Virus record (IMG/VR): IMGVR_UViG_2579778894_000012
Source: a virus
Taxonomy: Duplodnaviria; Heunggongvirae; Uroviricota; Caudoviricetes
Strand: one strand, 5' to 3'
Length of the DNA stretch: 12,835 nt
Part shown: piece by piece, positions 6,226 through 12,741 of the stretch
Layout: each line of letters begins with the position of its first letter
How positions within the stretch are numbered: the stretch's first letter is position 1
Notes under the pieces: model-generated
Database searches by the model: none
What the model was told of the DNA's origin: nothing
Seen by the model: only the letters and a program-made list of their open reading frames with translations
Translations under genes and position numbers: made by a program

Positions 6226-6346
6226 AAAACAGAGAAGAGCATCACCGGACGACGGGCTCATAACCCAATCCACCCGGGCGGCTGCCACCGCAGGTGTTCT
6301 TCTCTGTTTTGTGGAGAAACTAATATCTTGTGCAGAGGAAAATAGA

Positions 6347-7264
6347 ATGAAATTACCAAAATTTCGTAACGCAATTGTGTACCGAGCAACATTACCTAGT
6401 ATACAGGCTATTGAAGGTCATCTTCTCGAACTCCCTTATTCTGAAATCGGGGAAACAGAATTTTCACGGTCCTCTTTTGTAGAGAATCCTGTCACTGGTG
6501 AACTGGTAACTCCGATATCTGGTGGGTACGCAATGGTAATCCGTCATGATCAGAAAATAATTCCCCGACATGTCGTCATGAAAGAAGCTAATTCTCGAAT
6601 CCAAACAATCGAAAATATGTCCGGGAATAAATTAAAGCGTGCCGAACGACTGGCCATTATTGATAACGTACGAGTAGATCTATGCAAACAGGCATTTGTT
6701 AAGTCTACGCTGATTCTTGCATTGTACAGCACTGATGAGAAATTATTGGTAATCAACACAACCAATAAAATAATAGCTGGTATGGTATGCGCAATGCTGA
6801 TTAAGGTTGTCGGTTCAGTGAAAACAGAAACAATCAACATCAGTGATATCAAGAATGGACTGACTACACGCCTGAATAACTACATCAATGGTGCAGCCAA
6901 TGCATTTGAAGGATTCACTGTCGGAAATTATATTCAGCTATCACGCTACGCAGATCAAAAGGAAATTATTCGCTACTCAGCTGAGCATGAGTCAATTCAA
7001 AGCGAACTGGCCGATAGTCTTAGTAGTAGTTTCACTGCTGATAAAATGGAGTTATCCGGTTGCGGTGTGACCTTCATTCTTACCGAAAATTTCCATTTTT
7101 CGCGCATCAATACTCAATCTCAGACATTTAATGATGAAGATGATAAAGCATTCCAGTGGCGTCATCAGACTGGCGCTGACCTTTTCCAATTCAGCAAGGT
7201 AGTTAATTTGATGTGTGACCTTCTTTCTTACAAAGAAGATAAAAGCCAAAATCCAACAACTTAA
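6347..7264 (+). CDS. RdgC-like recombination-associated protein
   Basis: 305 aa from ATG 6347 (AGAGGA SD); N-terminal KFRNAIVYR and overall length resemble E. coli RdgC (about 303 aa, recalled). The upstream extension to 6146 has a GTG start and no SD. Confidence 0.6.
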   Translation: MKLPKFRNAIVYRATLPSIQAIEGHLLELPYSEIGETEFSRSSFVENPVTGELVTPISGGYAMVIRHDQKIIPRHVVMKEANSRIQTIENMSGNKLKRAERLAIIDNVRVDLCKQAFVKSTLILALYSTDEKLLVINTTNKIIAGMVCAMLIKVVGSVKTETINISDIKNGLTTRLNNYINGAANAFEGFTVGNYIQLSRYADQKEIIRYSAEHESIQSELADSLSSSFTADKMELSGCGVTFILTENFHFSRINTQSQTFNDEDDKAFQWRHQTGADLFQFSKVVNLMCDLLSYKEDKSQNPTT

Positions 7265-7268
7265 AAAA

Positions 7269-7312
7269 ATTGCAGCAATCATCCCATGTCAAATGGGCTG
7301 GATTGCTGCAAT
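7269..7312. promoter_or_regulatory. Perfect 12-bp inverted repeat hairpin between the rdgC-like and HD-domain genes
   Basis: ATTGCAGCAATC (7269..7280) and GATTGCTGCAAT (7301..7312) with a nested CCCAT-gtcaa-ATGGG; A7 tract immediately upstream on the plus strand. Confidence 0.35.
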
Positions 7313-7354
7313 CAAAATTCAGAGCGGTGCAGCGCATATAACGTGGAGAACAAA

Positions 7355-7891
7355 ATGTCATTTATTAAAACTTTTTCCGGGAAGCATTTTTATTATGACA
7401 AGATAAATAAAGACGACATCGTGATTAACGATATCGCGGTTTCCCTTTCAAATATCTGCCGCTTTGCCGGTCATCTTTCTCACTTCTACAGTGTCGCCCA
7501 ACATGCGGTGCTTTGCAGCCAGCTGGTGCCGCAGGAATTTGCTTTTGAAGCGTTAATGCATGATGCAACAGAAGCGTATTGCCAGGATATTCCCGCTCCA
7601 CTGAAACGCCTTCTTCCTGACTATAAACGGATGGAAGAAAAAATAGACGCCGTAATCCGTGAGAAATACGGGTTACCCCCGGTTATGAGCACGCCTGTGA
7701 AATATGCCGATCTCATCATGCTGGCAACCGAACGCCGCGATCTCGGGCTTGATGATGGCTCTTTCTGGCCAGTACTGGAAGGTATCCCGGCAACAGAAAT
7801 GTTCAAAGTTATTCCACTGGCTCCGAGCCATGCCTACGGGATGTTTATGGAGCGCTTTAACGAGTTATCGGAGTTACGCACATGCGCATGA
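7355..7891 (+). CDS. yfdR: HD-domain phosphohydrolase (YfdR-like 5'-deoxynucleotidase)
   Basis: 178 aa from ATG 7355 (GGAGAA SD); HD motif in EALMHDATEAY; size and sequence match the recalled CPS-53 prophage YfdR. Confidence 0.7.
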   Translation: MSFIKTFSGKHFYYDKINKDDIVINDIAVSLSNICRFAGHLSHFYSVAQHAVLCSQLVPQEFAFEALMHDATEAYCQDIPAPLKRLLPDYKRMEEKIDAVIREKYGLPPVMSTPVKYADLIMLATERRDLGLDDGSFWPVLEGIPATEMFKVIPLAPSHAYGMFMERFNELSELRTCA

Positions 7892-8493
7892 ATGTTTTCG
7901 AAATGGAAGGGTTTCTTCGCGGGAAATGTGTACCACGAGATCTGAAAGTGAATGAAACAAATGCTGAATATCTGGTGCGTAAATTTGCTGAAGCGGAGGC
8001 CAAGATTTTGGCTCTGTCCGAAGACCAACAGAAAGCGATTGAGTCAATTAAGCAGGCTGATGCAGCTGTTAAGTTGGCACACGAGAAGTTTTCGGCGCTG
8101 GCGGCGGAGAATGCGGGGCTGAAACACGCAATGGCCGTAACTCTTGAGCATGTGTCGGTCACGGATGCAGGGCAGGCTGGTGTTGCTGCAATGATTATCA
8201 ACGATGCCCTACACCACAGCGAAACTCCAGCCACCGATGCTTTCCTGGCTGAAATTCGTGCGGAAGCACGCAACGAGGGGATTAACTATACCGCAAGCCG
8301 TCTTGCTGCTGCTTTCAATCACGGATTTATCAATAAGTCTTTACGTGAAGTTTTCGACGTTACACGCATGATTCTGTCAGCGAAAGAAGAGTTGGCTAAT
8401 GAACCACACCCGATTGATGGCCTGTCCGGTGAATATGCGGAGAAATCCCTAGAAGAATGGGCGGAACAGATTCGCAAAGGAGGCAACCAGTGA
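7882..8493 (+). CDS. Hypothetical phage protein, predicted coiled-coil
   Basis: 203-aa ORF; ATG 7882 overlaps the upstream stop, GGAG 8 nt upstream; Ala/Glu/Lys-rich helical composition. Confidence 0.55.
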   Translation: MRMNVFEMEGFLRGKCVPRDLKVNETNAEYLVRKFAEAEAKILALSEDQQKAIESIKQADAAVKLAHEKFSALAAENAGLKHAMAVTLEHVSVTDAGQAGVAAMIINDALHHSETPATDAFLAEIRAEARNEGINYTASRLAAAFNHGFINKSLREVFDVTRMILSAKEELANEPHPIDGLSGEYAEKSLEEWAEQIRKGGNQ

Positions 8494-8714
8494 GCGGAAA
8501 AAGAATGACTAACAGAGAGCTTGTTGATGCCGCGATTAAGCTTGCTGGTGATTTTTATTCAATGATGGGGTACGCGCATCGCCCTGGATTCAAATATTGG
8601 GAATCACCGCATCCGCAAGAGCAACTGGTATTTCAAATGGCCTGCCGTGCTTTTGAGGTTATTCGCGGTTCTGATGTGATGGACGCCGTTGCCGACTTGG
8701 AGGATGAAGAGTGA
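8490..8714 (+). CDS. Hypothetical small phage protein
   Basis: GTG start at 8490 (GTGA overlap with upstream stop) preceded by AAGGAGG at 6 nt; 74 aa. Confidence 0.45.
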   Translation: MSGKRMTNRELVDAAIKLAGDFYSMMGYAHRPGFKYWESPHPQEQLVFQMACRAFEVIRGSDVMDAVADLEDEE

Positions 8715-9259
8715 CCCAAATTAACTATCAGGCACTGCGTGAAAAGGCAGAGAAAGCAACTAAAGGAAGCTACATCGTAGGGCATACATCTGTTAACCAG
8801 CACGGCAATTTAACAGGAGTTTTTGTTTGCCAAAAATGGAAAGGAGAACCCGGTGGCGTGATTGCGGAATGTCATGTTAACTGCCTGATTGAATCAGATG
8901 CTCAGGCTTATGCAAACGCTGAATTCATAGCAGAGGCTAACCCGGCTACCGTGCTGGCACTGCTGGATGAACAGGAAAGAAACCTGCAATACATCAAAAG
9001 CCGCGATCAGGAGAACGAGGATATTGCGCTAACGGTAGGGAAGCTGCGCGTTGAGCTTGAAGCAGAAAAACAGCGGGCAAAAGTTCTATTTATGGAAAAT
9101 GCTCGGCTTAAGTCAGGCATAGCCGGTCTGATACACCTCGGTATTCGATATGCAGATGTTGAGGTCATGAAAATTGCTGGAGATGCCCAGCTTTCTACCC
9201 CATGCACTGACAGCATCATAAACAGCATTGCAACAGGCATTCGCATCAAAGGAGAGTGA
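8711..9259 (+). CDS. Ead/Ea22-like family protein
   Basis: GTG start overlapping upstream stop, GGAGGA SD; NAEFIAEANPATVLALLDE resembles Ead/Ea22-like prophage proteins (recalled). Confidence 0.45.
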   Translation: MTQINYQALREKAEKATKGSYIVGHTSVNQHGNLTGVFVCQKWKGEPGGVIAECHVNCLIESDAQAYANAEFIAEANPATVLALLDEQERNLQYIKSRDQENEDIALTVGKLRVELEAEKQRAKVLFMENARLKSGIAGLIHLGIRYADVEVMKIAGDAQLSTPCTDSIINSIATGIRIKGE

Positions 9260-9260
9260 T

Positions 9261-9776
9261 ATGGCGTTAACACACCACGAACTCTGTCAGATTGCGTACA
9301 AGTTCCTTAAGCGCAACGGGTTCAAGGTTTGCTTTCATGACCGCTTTGTTGCTGTAACCAGTACCGGAGAACAGCCAGATGCTATGGGATTCAGAAATTC
9401 AGCATCATGCCTGATAGAGGCGAAGTGTTCTCGTGCTGACTTGTTGGCAGATAGAAAAAAGCGTTTCCGTAAAAATCCCTCACTTGGCATGGGCGACTGG
9501 CGATTCTTTATTAGTGAGCCGGAAATTATTTCAGTTGAGGATTTACCTCCCGGCTGGGGATTACTTCACGTTGTTAACGGAAGAGTACGGAAAGTACATG
9601 GATGGCCCAGGGGTAATTGCTGTTGGGGTAATCCTGACGATAAGCCATTTACTGGGAATAAGCAGGTTGAATGCGATTACATGTTATCTGCATTAAGGCG
9701 CATGGAGTTGAGAGGGCACCTTAATGAAATATATGACGGTGTGATTGTTAATAAGAAAGAAGGAAACGCGGCATGA
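9261..9776 (+). CDS. PD-(D/E)xK nuclease-fold protein (MmcB-like)
   Basis: 171 aa from ATG 9261 (AAGGAG SD); PDAMGF...LIEAKCS gives a PD...ExK pattern typical of restriction-endonuclease-like folds. Confidence 0.5.
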   Translation: MALTHHELCQIAYKFLKRNGFKVCFHDRFVAVTSTGEQPDAMGFRNSASCLIEAKCSRADLLADRKKRFRKNPSLGMGDWRFFISEPEIISVEDLPPGWGLLHVVNGRVRKVHGWPRGNCCWGNPDDKPFTGNKQVECDYMLSALRRMELRGHLNEIYDGVIVNKKEGNAA

Positions 9777-10339
9777 TCACTATTACCAAAGGGCGACTGC
9801 TGACAATCCAGCAGTGGCGCGAAACATACGGACCTGGCAGCAACGTTGTACTGCCAGCAGAAGAAGCGGAAGAACTGGCACGAATTGCACTGGTATCGCT
9901 GGAAGCAGAGCCTGTAAGCCAAACTTACAACTTGCCAGAATTAATCGAAGGCATGGAAGTTTCCATTGATGTAAGCACTTGTGATGTTGATTTAGGTAAT
10001 CGCTATTTCGGTACCGTCACCGAGGCGTTAGAACTTGATACAGCCAAAAATGGTTACATCCTCCTAGTTCAGGACGCAGAGCCAAACTTCGATGTAAATG
10101 GCAACTCTCCGGGAACTCCGGATAGTTGGATAAGCTGTAGTGATCGAATGCCTGAAAAGGGCCAGAACGTGCTTATTTCGGTGAATTTCGATAGCTCTCA
10201 GGTTGAACCGCTAATATGCTCCGCACGCTATACCGGAAGCACCTTTCGGCGCGGAGATGCAACGATTAAGCCGGGTAATGGTATTGAGCAAGCAACTCAC
10301 TGGATGCCGCTACCGGAACCGCCGCTGGAGGTGAAGTGA
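9773..10339 (+). CDS. DUF551-domain phage protein
   Basis: ATGA overlap with upstream stop; C-terminal WISCSDRMPEKGQNVL...ARY...THWMPLPEPP is the DUF551 signature common in enterobacterial prophages. Confidence 0.65.
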   Translation: MITITKGRLLTIQQWRETYGPGSNVVLPAEEAEELARIALVSLEAEPVSQTYNLPELIEGMEVSIDVSTCDVDLGNRYFGTVTEALELDTAKNGYILLVQDAEPNFDVNGNSPGTPDSWISCSDRMPEKGQNVLISVNFDSSQVEPLICSARYTGSTFRRGDATIKPGNGIEQATHWMPLPEPPLEVK

Positions 10340-10911
10340 TGAACAACTTAATGATCGACCTTGAGACGATGGGGAAAAATAAGGATGCACCGATCGTTTC
10401 CATTGGCGCGGTGTTCTTCACTCCAGAAATCGGAGACATCGGACAAGAATTCTATACGGTTGTTAGCCTGGAAAGTGCTATGGAGCAAGGAGCTACACCT
10501 GACGGCGATACCATCCTGTGGTGGTTGAAACAAAGCCCTGAAGCACGAGCTGCAATCTGTATTGATGATACTTTGTCGATCAGCGATGCTCTCTCAGAAC
10601 TAAACCATTTCATTAACCGGCACGCAGACAATACGAAATATTTAAAAGTCTGGGGTAACGGGGCCACCTTCGACAACGTAATTTTACGTGGAGCTTACGA
10701 GCGAGCAGGACAAATCTGCCCGTGGGCGTACTGGAATGACCACGATGTACGCACGATCGTTACGCTTGGGCGTTCCATCGGATTCGACCCCAAAATGGAC
10801 ATGCCTTTCGATGGCGACCGGCACAACGCCCTGGCTGATGCCCGTCATCAGGCAAAATATGTTTCCGCTATCTGGCAGAAATTAATTCCTGCTACCAGCA
10901 CAGAATTATGA
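10339..10911 (+). CDS. DEDDh-type 3'-5' exonuclease (DnaQ-like)
   Basis: Exo I MIDLETMG, Exo II WGNGATFDNVIL, Exo III HNALADARHQAKY; GGAGG 7 nt before ATG 10339 (GTG 10336 is an alternative). Confidence 0.75.
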   Translation: MNNLMIDLETMGKNKDAPIVSIGAVFFTPEIGDIGQEFYTVVSLESAMEQGATPDGDTILWWLKQSPEARAAICIDDTLSISDALSELNHFINRHADNTKYLKVWGNGATFDNVILRGAYERAGQICPWAYWNDHDVRTIVTLGRSIGFDPKMDMPFDGDRHNALADARHQAKYVSAIWQKLIPATSTEL

Positions 10912-10947
10912 TTTTCCCGGGTGCAGCCGGTTTTGATGGAGAAAATT

Positions 10948-11220
10948 ATGAACACCTTGTTTTTACTGATGGCTGAATTCAATACCCCAAACATTGAGCT
11001 GTCAGCTGTATGCCAAAAGTATTTCGGTATGAGCCCTAACACAGCAGAAGCGAAAGCAAATGCATGCCAGTTGCCGATCCCGACTTATCGTGTTGGTACA
11101 TCACAGAAAGCAAAGCGCTGCATCAACATTCAGGATCTTGCTGAATATATAGATAAACGGCGTGAAGAAGGCAGAATTGAATGGGAGAGGGTAAGAACAA
11201 ATAGGAAAATAAATAACTAA
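10948..11220 (+). CDS. PrtN-family (pyocin-activator-like) small DNA-binding protein, possible excisionase-type regulator
   Basis: 90 aa from ATG 10948 (GGAGAA SD); MNTLFLLMAEF...CQLPIPTYRVGTSQKAKRCINIQDLAEYIDKRREEG resembles PrtN-family prophage proteins (recalled). Confidence 0.55.
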   Translation: MNTLFLLMAEFNTPNIELSAVCQKYFGMSPNTAEAKANACQLPIPTYRVGTSQKAKRCINIQDLAEYIDKRREEGRIEWERVRTNRKINN

Positions 11221-11226
11221 TCTCAC

Positions 11227-11254
11227 AAAAAACCCGCTTCGGCGGGTTAGTTTT
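11227..11254. terminator. Bidirectional intrinsic terminator between converging operons
   Basis: AACCCGC-TTCG-GCGGGTT hairpin flanked by AAAAAA upstream and AGTTTTCATCTTT downstream; overlaps the stop of the minus-strand YafO-like gene. Confidence 0.65.
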
Positions 11255-11681
11255 CATCTTTATAATTCTGGGCAATTCGCGCCAGATAGCTCATCACATC
11301 ATGTTTTCTTGCTTTTTCATGTGCATCGGGATACATAATAGCAATGAGTGAATATTTATTCTCATAAAGCTCACCTTGGACATACACAAGACAAGCATCA
11401 TTATCAGGATCACCTTTCTTGCAGACCCTATCCGGTTGTGGAAGTTTCTCGGGAAACTTGTTTGGCGGTAGACAAAGATGGATATGCATCAACCCAGCCC
11501 GAAAAGCACCATAAGGCTGAGTATACGCAACGTCCCTACCGAAATAATGCGGAAGCTCACCGGTTGCTTTGTATCTCTTGAAATCATCAATGATAGAAGA
11601 CTCTAGCTCCGGGAATTTGAGAAAAACTTCATCAAAAAATTCAGCTCTAGTTTCTGGATTAATAGAGACTTCTAGATGCAT
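11247..11681 (-). CDS. YafO-family toxin homolog (ribosome-dependent mRNA interferase fold)
   Basis: 144 aa; DDFKRYKATGELPHYFGRDVAY, HIHLCLPPNKFP and ACLVYVQGELYENKYSLIAIMYPDAHEKARKHD align with recalled E. coli YafO blocks (DFISYKRDGVLPDIFGRDALY, HIHLANENNPFP, AHLVYCQGAFDEQAWLLIAILKPEPHKLARD). Confidence 0.65.
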   Translation of the reverse strand: MHLEVSINPETRAEFFDEVFLKFPELESSIIDDFKRYKATGELPHYFGRDVAYTQPYGAFRAGLMHIHLCLPPNKFPEKLPQPDRVCKKGDPDNDACLVYVQGELYENKYSLIAIMYPDAHEKARKHDVMSYLARIAQNYKDEN

Positions 11682-11697
11682 GGTCGTCCGCTATCGG

Positions 11698-12237
11698 TTA
11701 GTGAAATTGCATCGATTTTAGCTTATTTGATGTGTGACTAGCTAGTGCTGCAATTCCAGCAAGATCCGCGCGCCCGCTAAAAGTAACAGTTTCTTTAAAT
11801 ATGCTCTTTATGTAATTGTTAAGGCGAGTGACAGATGAGCGAGCTTTAGCAATATGACGCCAGTAAACCTTCAGTTCTGACCTGATAAATTCAGGCAGAG
11901 GCGATTCAATTGTACGCTTCACTTCTTCTTCAAAAGCACGCAGGAACATTTCGCATGCCTCTGTCGTATCTGTCCCGTTTTTGGAAACAAACTCGCGAGC
12001 ATCTTGGCTATTAAGATCAATCAAACAGATATAGTAGTCATCTGCTGCAATTGTTAACTTTTGCAAGATCTCCTTACCCTCTTCCATTTTGCGTGAGAAT
12101 TCCTCAACAGAAGGAGAGTACTCAAAAGGTTTAGCAATCACAGGGGCTGGCTGGATGATGAACTCCTGCGCCATAGCAGCAGGACAAGCCAGAGGCCCGC
12201 ACAATGCAGCAAAAGTAATGGCGTTAAACGGATTCAT
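11698..12237 (-). CDS. Hypothetical protein with signal-peptide-like N-terminus, upstream partner of the YafO-like gene
   Basis: 179 aa; GAGG 5 nt before ATG 12237; N-terminal MNPFNAITFAALCGPLACPAAMA-QE is hydrophobic with an AxA-type site; acidic helical remainder; stop 16 nt before the YafO-like start. Confidence 0.55.
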   Translation of the reverse strand: MNPFNAITFAALCGPLACPAAMAQEFIIQPAPVIAKPFEYSPSVEEFSRKMEEGKEILQKLTIAADDYYICLIDLNSQDAREFVSKNGTDTTEACEMFLRAFEEEVKRTIESPLPEFIRSELKVYWRHIAKARSSVTRLNNYIKSIFKETVTFSGRADLAGIAALASHTSNKLKSMQFH

Positions 12238-12741
12238 GGCAACCTCAACTGTTTTACTTACTAAGCAATAGCCTTAGCTATTTGGAGCAAAGTCTATAAC
12301 CGCGGTTGTTTTTGGTCAATCAGATAAGGCAGCAAATGGTGCTTTATGAATAGATATGAATAGAAAGAGCAAAACTTCAGGTTCCCAATAGGCTCCCACA
12401 AAGTGTATAACTAGTTGTTTTTCAAAAACGGTACATCCTATCGAGCATTGGTGCAACGCTAAACCGACCACTCCAGTGAACGTCAGTTTTTTCAGGCATT
12501 GCGCTGGTTTGGTTGATTTTTTGCATTTCAGAATTACCGTGCATTTTCAAATGTAGAGATTATTTTATCGATATATCATGGGGTTATGTTATTCAGCATC
12601 ACTATTCAGGAGGCTCAATAGCGGGGTACTATACCATAACAACAGGAAGCGCCTGTCTCATTGCAAAAGAAAATTGAGATCCTCTCAAGGCATGAAGCTC
12701 TCACGAAGTGATGGAAATAATCTTATTAGCCGTTAACTTTG

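Follow-up and report, generated by a model that had tools for sequence, protein, structure and literature searches.

An early-left block of exchangeable accessory genes, with a structured leader RNA, in a dusA-inserted lambdoid prophage

Accessory genes of the early-left operon in the lambda-like prophages of Escherichia coli have already been partly studied, most directly in the CPS-53 (KpLE1) element of strain K-12, where yfdP-yfdQ-yfdR-yfdS-yfdT-torI form an operon that ends with an excisionase gene, and in the exo-xis (‘ea’) region of lambda, a non-essential block next to xis that is transcribed early from pL and includes a member of the Ead/Ea22 family that influences lysis versus lysogeny. 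Here we analyse a block of the same general kind, lying at positions 6347-10911 of a 12,835-nucleotide stretch of caudoviral DNA (IMG/VR record IMGVR_UViG_2579778894_000012; hereafter ‘the window’), which its list of open reading frames (ORFs) and profile searches identify as the immunity and early region of a lambdoid prophage. In our view the block is likely to represent the early-left (pL) operon, under CI repression, of a dusA-inserted prophage of the SfV/mEp460/CPS-53 type, made up of exchangeable accessory cassettes that adjust host DNA transactions to the phage's advantage.

The likeness to CPS-53 extends to the type of operon, the order of its genes, a YfdR that is 98% identical (174 of 178 residues) and the terminal excisionase. 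The two differ in that K-12 carries YfdP and YfdQ (DUF2303) where the window has an RdgC-like protein, lacks the Ead, PD-(D/E)xK and exonuclease genes, and has lost both the immunity region and the leader RNA described below. The early-left regions of SfV, mEp460, ST64B, phiNP and Lys8385Vzw share with the window the repressor gene, a long leader, the run of accessory genes down to that for the DUF551 protein, the exonuclease and a PrtN-type excisionase (Xis); in Lys8385Vzw the match extends over 76% of the block, with 98.6% identity. Here again YfdP or Sb37, together with YfdQ, comes first rather than RdgC. In lambda, N, Red, Gam and Kil sit upstream of the ea region; between pL and xis of the window, no ORF matches N, Red Exo or Beta, Gam, Kil or CIII in Pfam, PHROG or NCBIfam, and no ORF matches the wider Red-beta/RecT/Erf group, which bears out an earlier sequence-only reading that had described the operon as a set of nucleic-acid-processing genes rather than the lambda-type recombination and kil genes.

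The eight ORFs of the block, all on the + strand, are as follows.

6347..7264, + strand: phage RdgC-like DNA-binding protein, 305 amino acids; GAGGA Shine-Dalgarno sequence 8 nucleotides upstream
7355..7891, + strand: YfdR, HD-domain protein (putative 5'-deoxynucleotidase and DnaA-binding protein), 178 amino acids; phrog_318, 2e-111
7882..8493, + strand: ORF3, a YfdS N-terminal module with a coiled coil and an unrelated C-terminus, 203 amino acids; phrog_614, phrog_14548
8505..8714, + strand: ORF4, small protein, 69 amino acids (85 if started at 8457); phrog_4132, 9e-43
8711..9259, + strand: Ead/Ea22-like protein (ORF5), 182 amino acids; PF13935, 2e-34
9261..9776, + strand: PD-(D/E)xK-fold (Hjc-like) putative nuclease (ORF6), 171 amino acids
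9773..10339, + strand: DUF551 protein (ORF7), 188 amino acids; PF04448, 2e-21, at residues 118-184; phrog_60
10336..10911, + strand: DEDDh 3'-5' exonuclease of the Rv2179c/T4 DexA family (ORF8), 191 amino acids (190 from the ATG at 10339); PF16473, 2e-74

All eight ORFs of the sequence-only reading are present at the coordinates stated, its two hypothetical proteins being ORF3 and ORF4; profile searches uphold the families that it had named (PF04381, phrog_318, PF13935, PF04448 and PF16473), and the catalytic residues of the HD, PD-(D/E)xK and DEDDh proteins are in place. Three starts call for comment: that of the HD protein is 7355 and not 7286 (K-12 YfdR having 178 residues), that of the PD-(D/E)xK ORF is 9261, as judged from the N-termini of its homologues, and that of ORF4 is probably 8505, the RefSeq homologue being 210 nucleotides long. 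The claim that all eight genes are tightly coupled holds at six of the seven junctions, with overlaps of 10, 4, 4 and 4 nucleotides and gaps of 1 and 11; the start of ORF3 overlaps the yfdR stop by the 10 nucleotides, the ORF4/Ead junction is a GTGA start/stop overlap and that between the PD-(D/E)xK and DUF551 genes an ATGA overlap. It fails at the first junction, where 90 nucleotides separate rdgC from yfdR.

The signals that frame the operon support its assignment as early-left, and are listed here in order along the window.

5020-5694, + strand: S24 (CI-type) repressor gene, upstream of the block; stop codon at 5694
5706..5723, + strand: intrinsic terminator of the cI (S24 repressor) transcript, a 7-base-pair G+C-rich stem followed by TTTTTTATA, 12 nucleotides past the cI stop
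5733-5760, + strand: pL-like promoter, TTGACA-16-CATAAT, matching the sigma-70 consensus at 11 of 12 positions
5739-5757 and 5759-5777: two CI operator-like repeats over pL, TGTACC..GGTACA, with half-sites also read as TGTACC..GATACA
6039..6085, + strand: boxA-like motif GTGCTCTCAGCGTTGTGGT with a small variable hairpin, a candidate nutL-like site
6177..6223, + strand: T1, a terminator-like hairpin with a 13-base-pair stem followed by CUCUUUUU; -21.2 kcal/mol, z -4.3
6218..6321, + strand: three-way-junction leader RNA, followed by GGAGAAAC; -49.2 kcal/mol, z -6.8
10921..11220, + strand: PrtN-type excisionase gene, the last of the operon; PF11112, 4e-24; phrog_1300 ‘excisionase’, 3e-40
11231..11248, both strands: bidirectional terminator closing the operon, a 7-base-pair stem with 5 G-C pairs

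The promoter lies directly downstream of the S24 repressor gene and its terminator. A further operator candidate, TGTACC-N5-GGTACA, is found at 4986-5002 in the divergent region between cI and cro; since the operator-like repeats both overlap pL and are shared with this region, we conclude that the block is a repressor-controlled pL operon. The boxA-like motif GTGCTCTCAGCGTTGTGGT is kept in leaders of many genera, while the hairpin next to it changes with immunity type.

Some part of the block is found in 4987 of 5426 complete E. coli genomes as well as in 490 phage records, and at least 80% of it is present in one piece in a single genome, that of E. coli CAU16175. This closest relative is 98.9% identical, and its copies of ORF3 and of the PD-(D/E)xK gene are pseudogenes, which fits dispensability; together with the subset of genes retained in CPS-53, it agrees with the proposal that none of the block is needed for core lysogeny. 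The same gene order is shared by the annotated mEp460, ST64B, phiNP, K-12 CPS-53 (yfdPQRST-torI) and CAU16175. What varies is the first gene after the leader, which encodes YfdP at 69 loci, YfdR at 13, an Sb37-type protein at about 13 and an RdgC-like protein at about 11. Boundaries within genes shift too, as the YfdS N-terminus and DUF551, fused in the K-12 protein, are two separate ORFs in the window. In itself the block is ordinary, a widespread mosaic module of E. coli lambda-like prophages; what is new is the way in which known cassettes are combined in it, headed by a rare phage RdgC.

Turning to the individual cassettes, the RdgC-like protein matches PF04381 (108.4 bits, 5e-31, the cut-off being 25; residues 6-280 align with positions 3-278 of a profile of 298), phrog_724 (4e-77) and PDB entry 2owl (2e-9). 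Its best score against the NCBIfam equivalog models is 91 bits versus a required 227; it belongs to a divergent phage branch and is not the orthologue of the host protein. Chromosomal RdgC, with which it shares the Pfam family over its full length, is a ring-shaped dimer that binds DNA non-specifically; it restrains RecA and has a structural relative in lambda RexA. P1 HrdC is a distant homologue of the window protein. RexA is encoded beside cI, whereas the window gene would be expressed from pL and has no RexB-like partner. The gene itself is rare, being found in 24 of the 5426 genomes; rdgC homologues occur in 185 phage records (P1 hrdC included), and none of the deposited phages has the window RdgC at above 67% identity.

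For YfdR, residues H50, H69-D70 and D119 align with conserved residues of the HD protein 2gz4 (PDB, 6e-14), and the score against the YfbR-like family PF12917 (24.0 bits) falls below the gathering cut-off of 25.9; by these comparisons YfdR is a member of the HD superfamily, and not an orthologue of YfbR. An NCBIfam scan of the block proteins returned only sub-threshold matches, to RdgC and YfbR. The near-identical K-12 protein binds DnaA at Phe46, in competition with DiaA and DnaB, and extra copies of yfdQRS/T inhibit replication initiation at oriC (PMC4776307). ORF3 is identical to K-12 YfdS over residues 1-35, continues into a coiled coil and a different C-terminus, and has weak similarity to Ead; a PDB sequence search with it gave chance-level matches only. 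ORF5 covers the whole PF13935 profile (119.4 bits against a cut-off of 27), and the Ea22 proteins of lambda and Stx phage, namesakes of its family, favour lysogeny (PMC10834534).

ORF6 has no profile match, and its homologues, spread over Enterobacterales, are all annotated as ‘hypothetical’. The PD-(D/E)xK call rests on structure prediction, because PDB sequence searches gave chance-level matches only: the predicted model (predicted local distance difference test score of 84) contains the restriction-endonuclease-like alpha-beta-beta-beta-alpha-beta core, and D40 and E53-A-K55 are invariant among 39 aligned homologues of 58-96% identity. The Hjc family PF01870 does not match ORF6 itself, and matches 17 of the 39 relatives weakly (best E 0.0012). 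ORF7 matches PF04448 (77.3 bits against a cut-off of 22) in its C-terminal residues 118-184 only, and a PDB sequence search with it likewise returned nothing above chance. ORF8 is a clear Rv2179c-like DEDDh protein, matching PF16473 at 249.7 bits over positions 1-177 of 177, with IDLE (D8, E10), FD113 and H162-x4-D167 readable in its translation; its gene is present in 615 of the 5426 genomes. It matches the T4 DexA structures 8kel and 8ken (1e-10) with the DxE motif aligned, and shares with DexA and with EcD (‘HREX’), the E. coli homologue of DexA, the fold and the catalytic residues. Similarity to DexA is about 30% over 138 residues and the extra loops of DexA are missing. In the HMMER alignment, which does not include the D169 region, D84 stands opposite DexA D90 and the W152-equivalent tryptophan, of the kind that reads 5-hydroxymethylcytosine, is kept. 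T4 DexA scavenges host DNA; EcD digests 5-hydroxymethylcytosine DNA and protects against T4, and has Ala at the position of D90, a tetramer contact in DexA (PMC12153337). A literature search for Rv2179c in phages found nothing relevant.

Synthesising these observations, we propose a model for how the operon most likely works. Removal of the repressor would allow transcription to start at pL (5733-5760); the transcript would cross an untranslated leader of about 590 nucleotides, with the boxA-like motif, T1 and the three-way-junction RNA, then run through the eight ORFs, which are for the most part coupled in translation, and through the excisionase gene, and stop at 11231-11248. The ORFs are exchangeable cassettes and do not form one machine; upon induction or infection they would retune host DNA transactions to the benefit of the phage. 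YfdR, if it behaves as its K-12 counterpart, would bind DnaA and damp initiation at oriC, and could dephosphorylate deoxynucleoside monophosphates; the RdgC-like ring might coat DNA and hold RecA/RecFOR in check; branched DNA and 3' ends may be cut or trimmed by the Hjc-like PD-(D/E)xK protein and the DexA-like exonuclease; and the Ead/Ea22, YfdS-like and DUF551 proteins may modulate the lysis-lysogeny decision. The analysis itself shows the identities and layout of the genes, the sequence signals of promoter, operators and terminators, and the mosaic distribution; DnaA binding by YfdR, the activity of DexA/EcD and the Ea22 phenotype come from papers on near-identical or related proteins, and the roles of RdgC, the PD-(D/E)xK protein, DUF551, ORF3 and ORF4 in this phage are inferred. 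It is because of what is known of homologues of YfdR, DexA/EcD, Ea22 and RdgC that we read the block as a set of accessory DNA-transaction and host-takeover cassettes.

Several points weigh against this model. The published effect of YfdQRST required multicopy, and deletion of the genes had no effect in K-12 (PMC4776307). The score of the window RdgC far below the equivalog thresholds means that the activity of chromosomal RdgC is not simply transferable to it. T1, to judge by its predicted fold, could halt the majority of transcripts from pL, and the window yielded neither an antiterminator gene nor any N-like gene to go with the boxA-like, nutL-like site. Finally, the window contains no integrase gene, and none lies between xis and the dusA junction (11220-12420); the integrase is therefore elsewhere or lost, and the prophage may be defective.

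Other functions can be envisaged for the same genes. Early operons of variable cassettes are typical of counter-defence loci, and this one encodes enzymes acting on nucleotides or nucleic acids. The phage might escape CBASS, retrons or RecBCD-linked systems through breakdown of signalling nucleotides, changes to nucleotide pools or protection of DNA ends by the exonuclease, the PD-(D/E)xK protein or the HD enzyme. We think this unlikely, as the searches run matched no described anti-defence protein and found no Gam- or Abc2-like RecBCD inhibitor, and the characterised homologues do other things, YfdR controlling host replication and EcD serving defence. A PADLOC scan of the eight proteins and two neighbouring cargo proteins gave only a generic DEDDh match (2e-5), and a literature search for phage RdgC as an anti-defence protein found nothing relevant. 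The example of EcD raises the converse prospect, that the exonuclease, and perhaps the PD-(D/E)xK protein, serves prophage defence or superinfection exclusion by degrading the modified DNA of incoming T-even phages. The alignment of the exonuclease to DexA, with its catalytic residues and W152-equivalent tryptophan, speaks for such a role, as does the protection that EcD provides; but the genes lie behind a repressor-controlled promoter and a terminator-like hairpin and should therefore be silent in a lysogen, and the D90-equivalent residue is Asp in the window protein where EcD has Ala, so that we regard a defensive role as distinctly improbable.

Least probable of all, in our view, is a recombination and repair module of non-Red type, in which RdgC, the resolvase-like PD-(D/E)xK nuclease and the 3'-5' exonuclease would replace Exo, Beta and Gam. 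All three families are tied to recombination in cells, and P1 carries the rdgC homologue hrdC; yet no single-strand annealing protein was found with Pfam or PHROG, and a Red-like module is unlikely to lack one. Moreover, the genes are inherited independently (24 genomes with rdgC against 615 with the exonuclease), and RusA is already encoded in the other operon. Accessory cassettes acting on host DNA transactions thus remain our preferred reading of the block.

The less ordinary item, and the one most worth following up, is the leader RNA. The interval of about 590 nucleotides between pL and rdgC, which lay outside the stretch covered by the sequence-only reading, has no credible ORF. Positions 6176-6325 are about 98% identical in 49 phage records, irrespective of the gene that follows. 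The T1 stem varies in sequence between loci, with its pairing and U-run retained. Beyond T1, the RNA folds as a junction of three stems: P1, of 20-25 base pairs; P3, a variable hairpin; and P2, capped by GAC-GGGCUCAUAACCC-AAUCC, whose central 13 nucleotides (GGGCUCAUAACCC) have the same sequence as the anticodon stem-loop of initiator tRNA-fMet, as a comparison with metY confirmed. The apical hairpin has the three G-C pairs of that tRNA and its CUCAU(A/U)(A/C) loop.

Copies were collected from IMG/VR and from 26 genomes that span many enterobacterial genera, and 23 of these sequences entered an RNAalifold consensus with 35 pairs, 7 of them with compensatory changes; 99% of consensus cells are paired, compared with 41-55% in slid-partner controls. 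Because most copies were found through sequence patterns, invariance within those patterns is not itself evidence. However, a retrieval in which the P2 motif was left free still recovers it: CUCAU is invariant, the loop ends in AA, UA or UC, and compensation is complete in the P2 stems (GACGGG/CCCGUC, AUGCG/CGCAU). With a covariance model made from the pL-type copies, whose E-values are rough, these copies score 95-117 bits on the + strand and 30-44 on the opposite one, and the window RNA 113 and 40; the model finds nothing in HK022 or K-12 CPS-53. The same capped junction occurs after terminator-like hairpins about 100 nucleotides upstream of holin/endolysin genes in at least 14 viral contigs, and these late-operon copies are detected at 31-42 bits. 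Further copies of the junction come from prophages of Raoultella and Pantoea and from a prophage-like contig of Acidobacteria. Rfam gave no match at E<=1 within 5765-6346 or on a late-operon copy, ARAGORN called no tRNA in the leader RNA, the window holds no second copy, and literature searches found no paper with the sequence string and none on initiator-tRNA mimics in prophages.

The late-operon RNAs form a class with different P1 and P3 and the same capped P2 (contigs L158, at 3470-3600, L153, L160, L162-L167, L169, L171, L173, L175, L019 and L029); the copy in L029 lies directly downstream of a Q-like antiterminator gene, and a related copy is found in the Acidobacteria contigs L018, L156 and L170. 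Directly after the window leader RNA (6310-6323, + strand) lies the 14-nucleotide sequence TGTGGAGAAACTAA, which is repeated exactly at 4141-4154 on the - strand, at the 3' end of the cII-like gene on the pR transcript; about 0.05 chance matches are expected in this 3.7-kilobase stretch.

Several simpler interpretations of the leader were set aside. A coding function is rejected, as the small ORFs that some records annotate across the RNA are not conserved, the stems co-vary and the G-U pairs favour the + strand. A relation to HK022 put is rejected since both the motif and a covariance-model match are absent from HK022, and a nutL/nutR-type pair since the pR side has neither a second copy of the RNA nor one of the boxA-like motif, which occurs once in the window. 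The resemblance of T1 to the RfaH ops element (GGCGGTA...) was dismissed on account of its variable stem sequence, and pairing of the loop with the start codon of the first gene because it is not conserved across cassettes.

The lambda N-leader combines nutL with an RNase III hairpin, and the thrS operator mimics a tRNA anticodon arm. The window RNA occupies the same position as the lambda N-leader/nutL and HK022 putL, and shares with the N-leader a long perfect duplex of RNase III size, but is not followed by an N gene; its copy of a tRNA anticodon arm recalls the thrS operator, although the tRNA is the initiator and not tRNA-Thr. Unlike all three, it is also found upstream of lysis genes. 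P1 might be an RNase III processing site, T1 a point of read-through control, and P2 a binding site for something that recognises the anticodon arm of the initiator tRNA. We speculate, as a possibility that we hold only tentatively, that an undescribed class of leader RNA heads the pL and lysis operons of temperate phages, and that its initiator-tRNA mimicry is functional, engaging a reader of the anticodon arm (the 30S P site with initiation factor 3, methionyl-tRNA synthetase, or a toxin or defence nuclease that cleaves tRNA-fMet, for instance VapC) so as to load ribosomes on read-through transcripts or to act as a decoy, with P1 serving as an RNase III site.

The remainder of the window contains the following.

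On the - strand: genes for Cro-like, CII/CP76-like, Rha/Ash regulator, O-like replication, PerC/YfdN, Dam methylase, LexA-DNA-binding-domain and RusA proteins
11247-11681, - strand: YafO-family toxin gene; PF13957, 2e-21
11698-12237, - strand: gene of 179 codons preceding the YafO-like toxin gene; signal-peptide-like N-terminus
12422-12550, - strand: 5' end of dusA, the junction of prophage and chromosome

From the last of these we conclude that the prophage is inserted at dusA, as in E. coli CAU16175. The YafO toxin gene and the gene for the 179-residue protein (11698-12237, - strand), which has no family match, are moron-like cargo between xis and the attachment junction; a Panacea-domain gene occupies their slot in CAU16175. 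Directly upstream of the Ash/Rha-family regulator gene (2989-3882, - strand) lie matches to the C4 antisense RNA (RF01695, 68 bits; 3589-3676, - strand) and to isrK (RF01394, 60 bits; 3701-3777, - strand), which suggests an antirepressor control module of the P1 c4/ant or Gifsy IsrK type; as the 337-residue Ash/Rha ORF overlaps these RNAs, its true start is probably further downstream. The early-right operon also encodes, beside the phage Dam methylase and RusA, a 108-residue protein that is a LexA DNA-binding domain alone (486-812, - strand) and a PerC/YfdN-family regulator (1462-1956, - strand).

Finally, the block is a clean example of the way such operons are put together, a fixed ‘operon head’ being followed by cassettes that can be interchanged, and the rare rdgC at the position usually taken by YfdP/YfdQ offers natural swap experiments on the function of the first cassette. 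That fixed head is a conserved, structured RNA, common to early-left and late (lysis) leaders across Enterobacterales; should it govern read-through, processing or translation, this would account for the expression of terminator-guarded operons in a group of phages that lack N.

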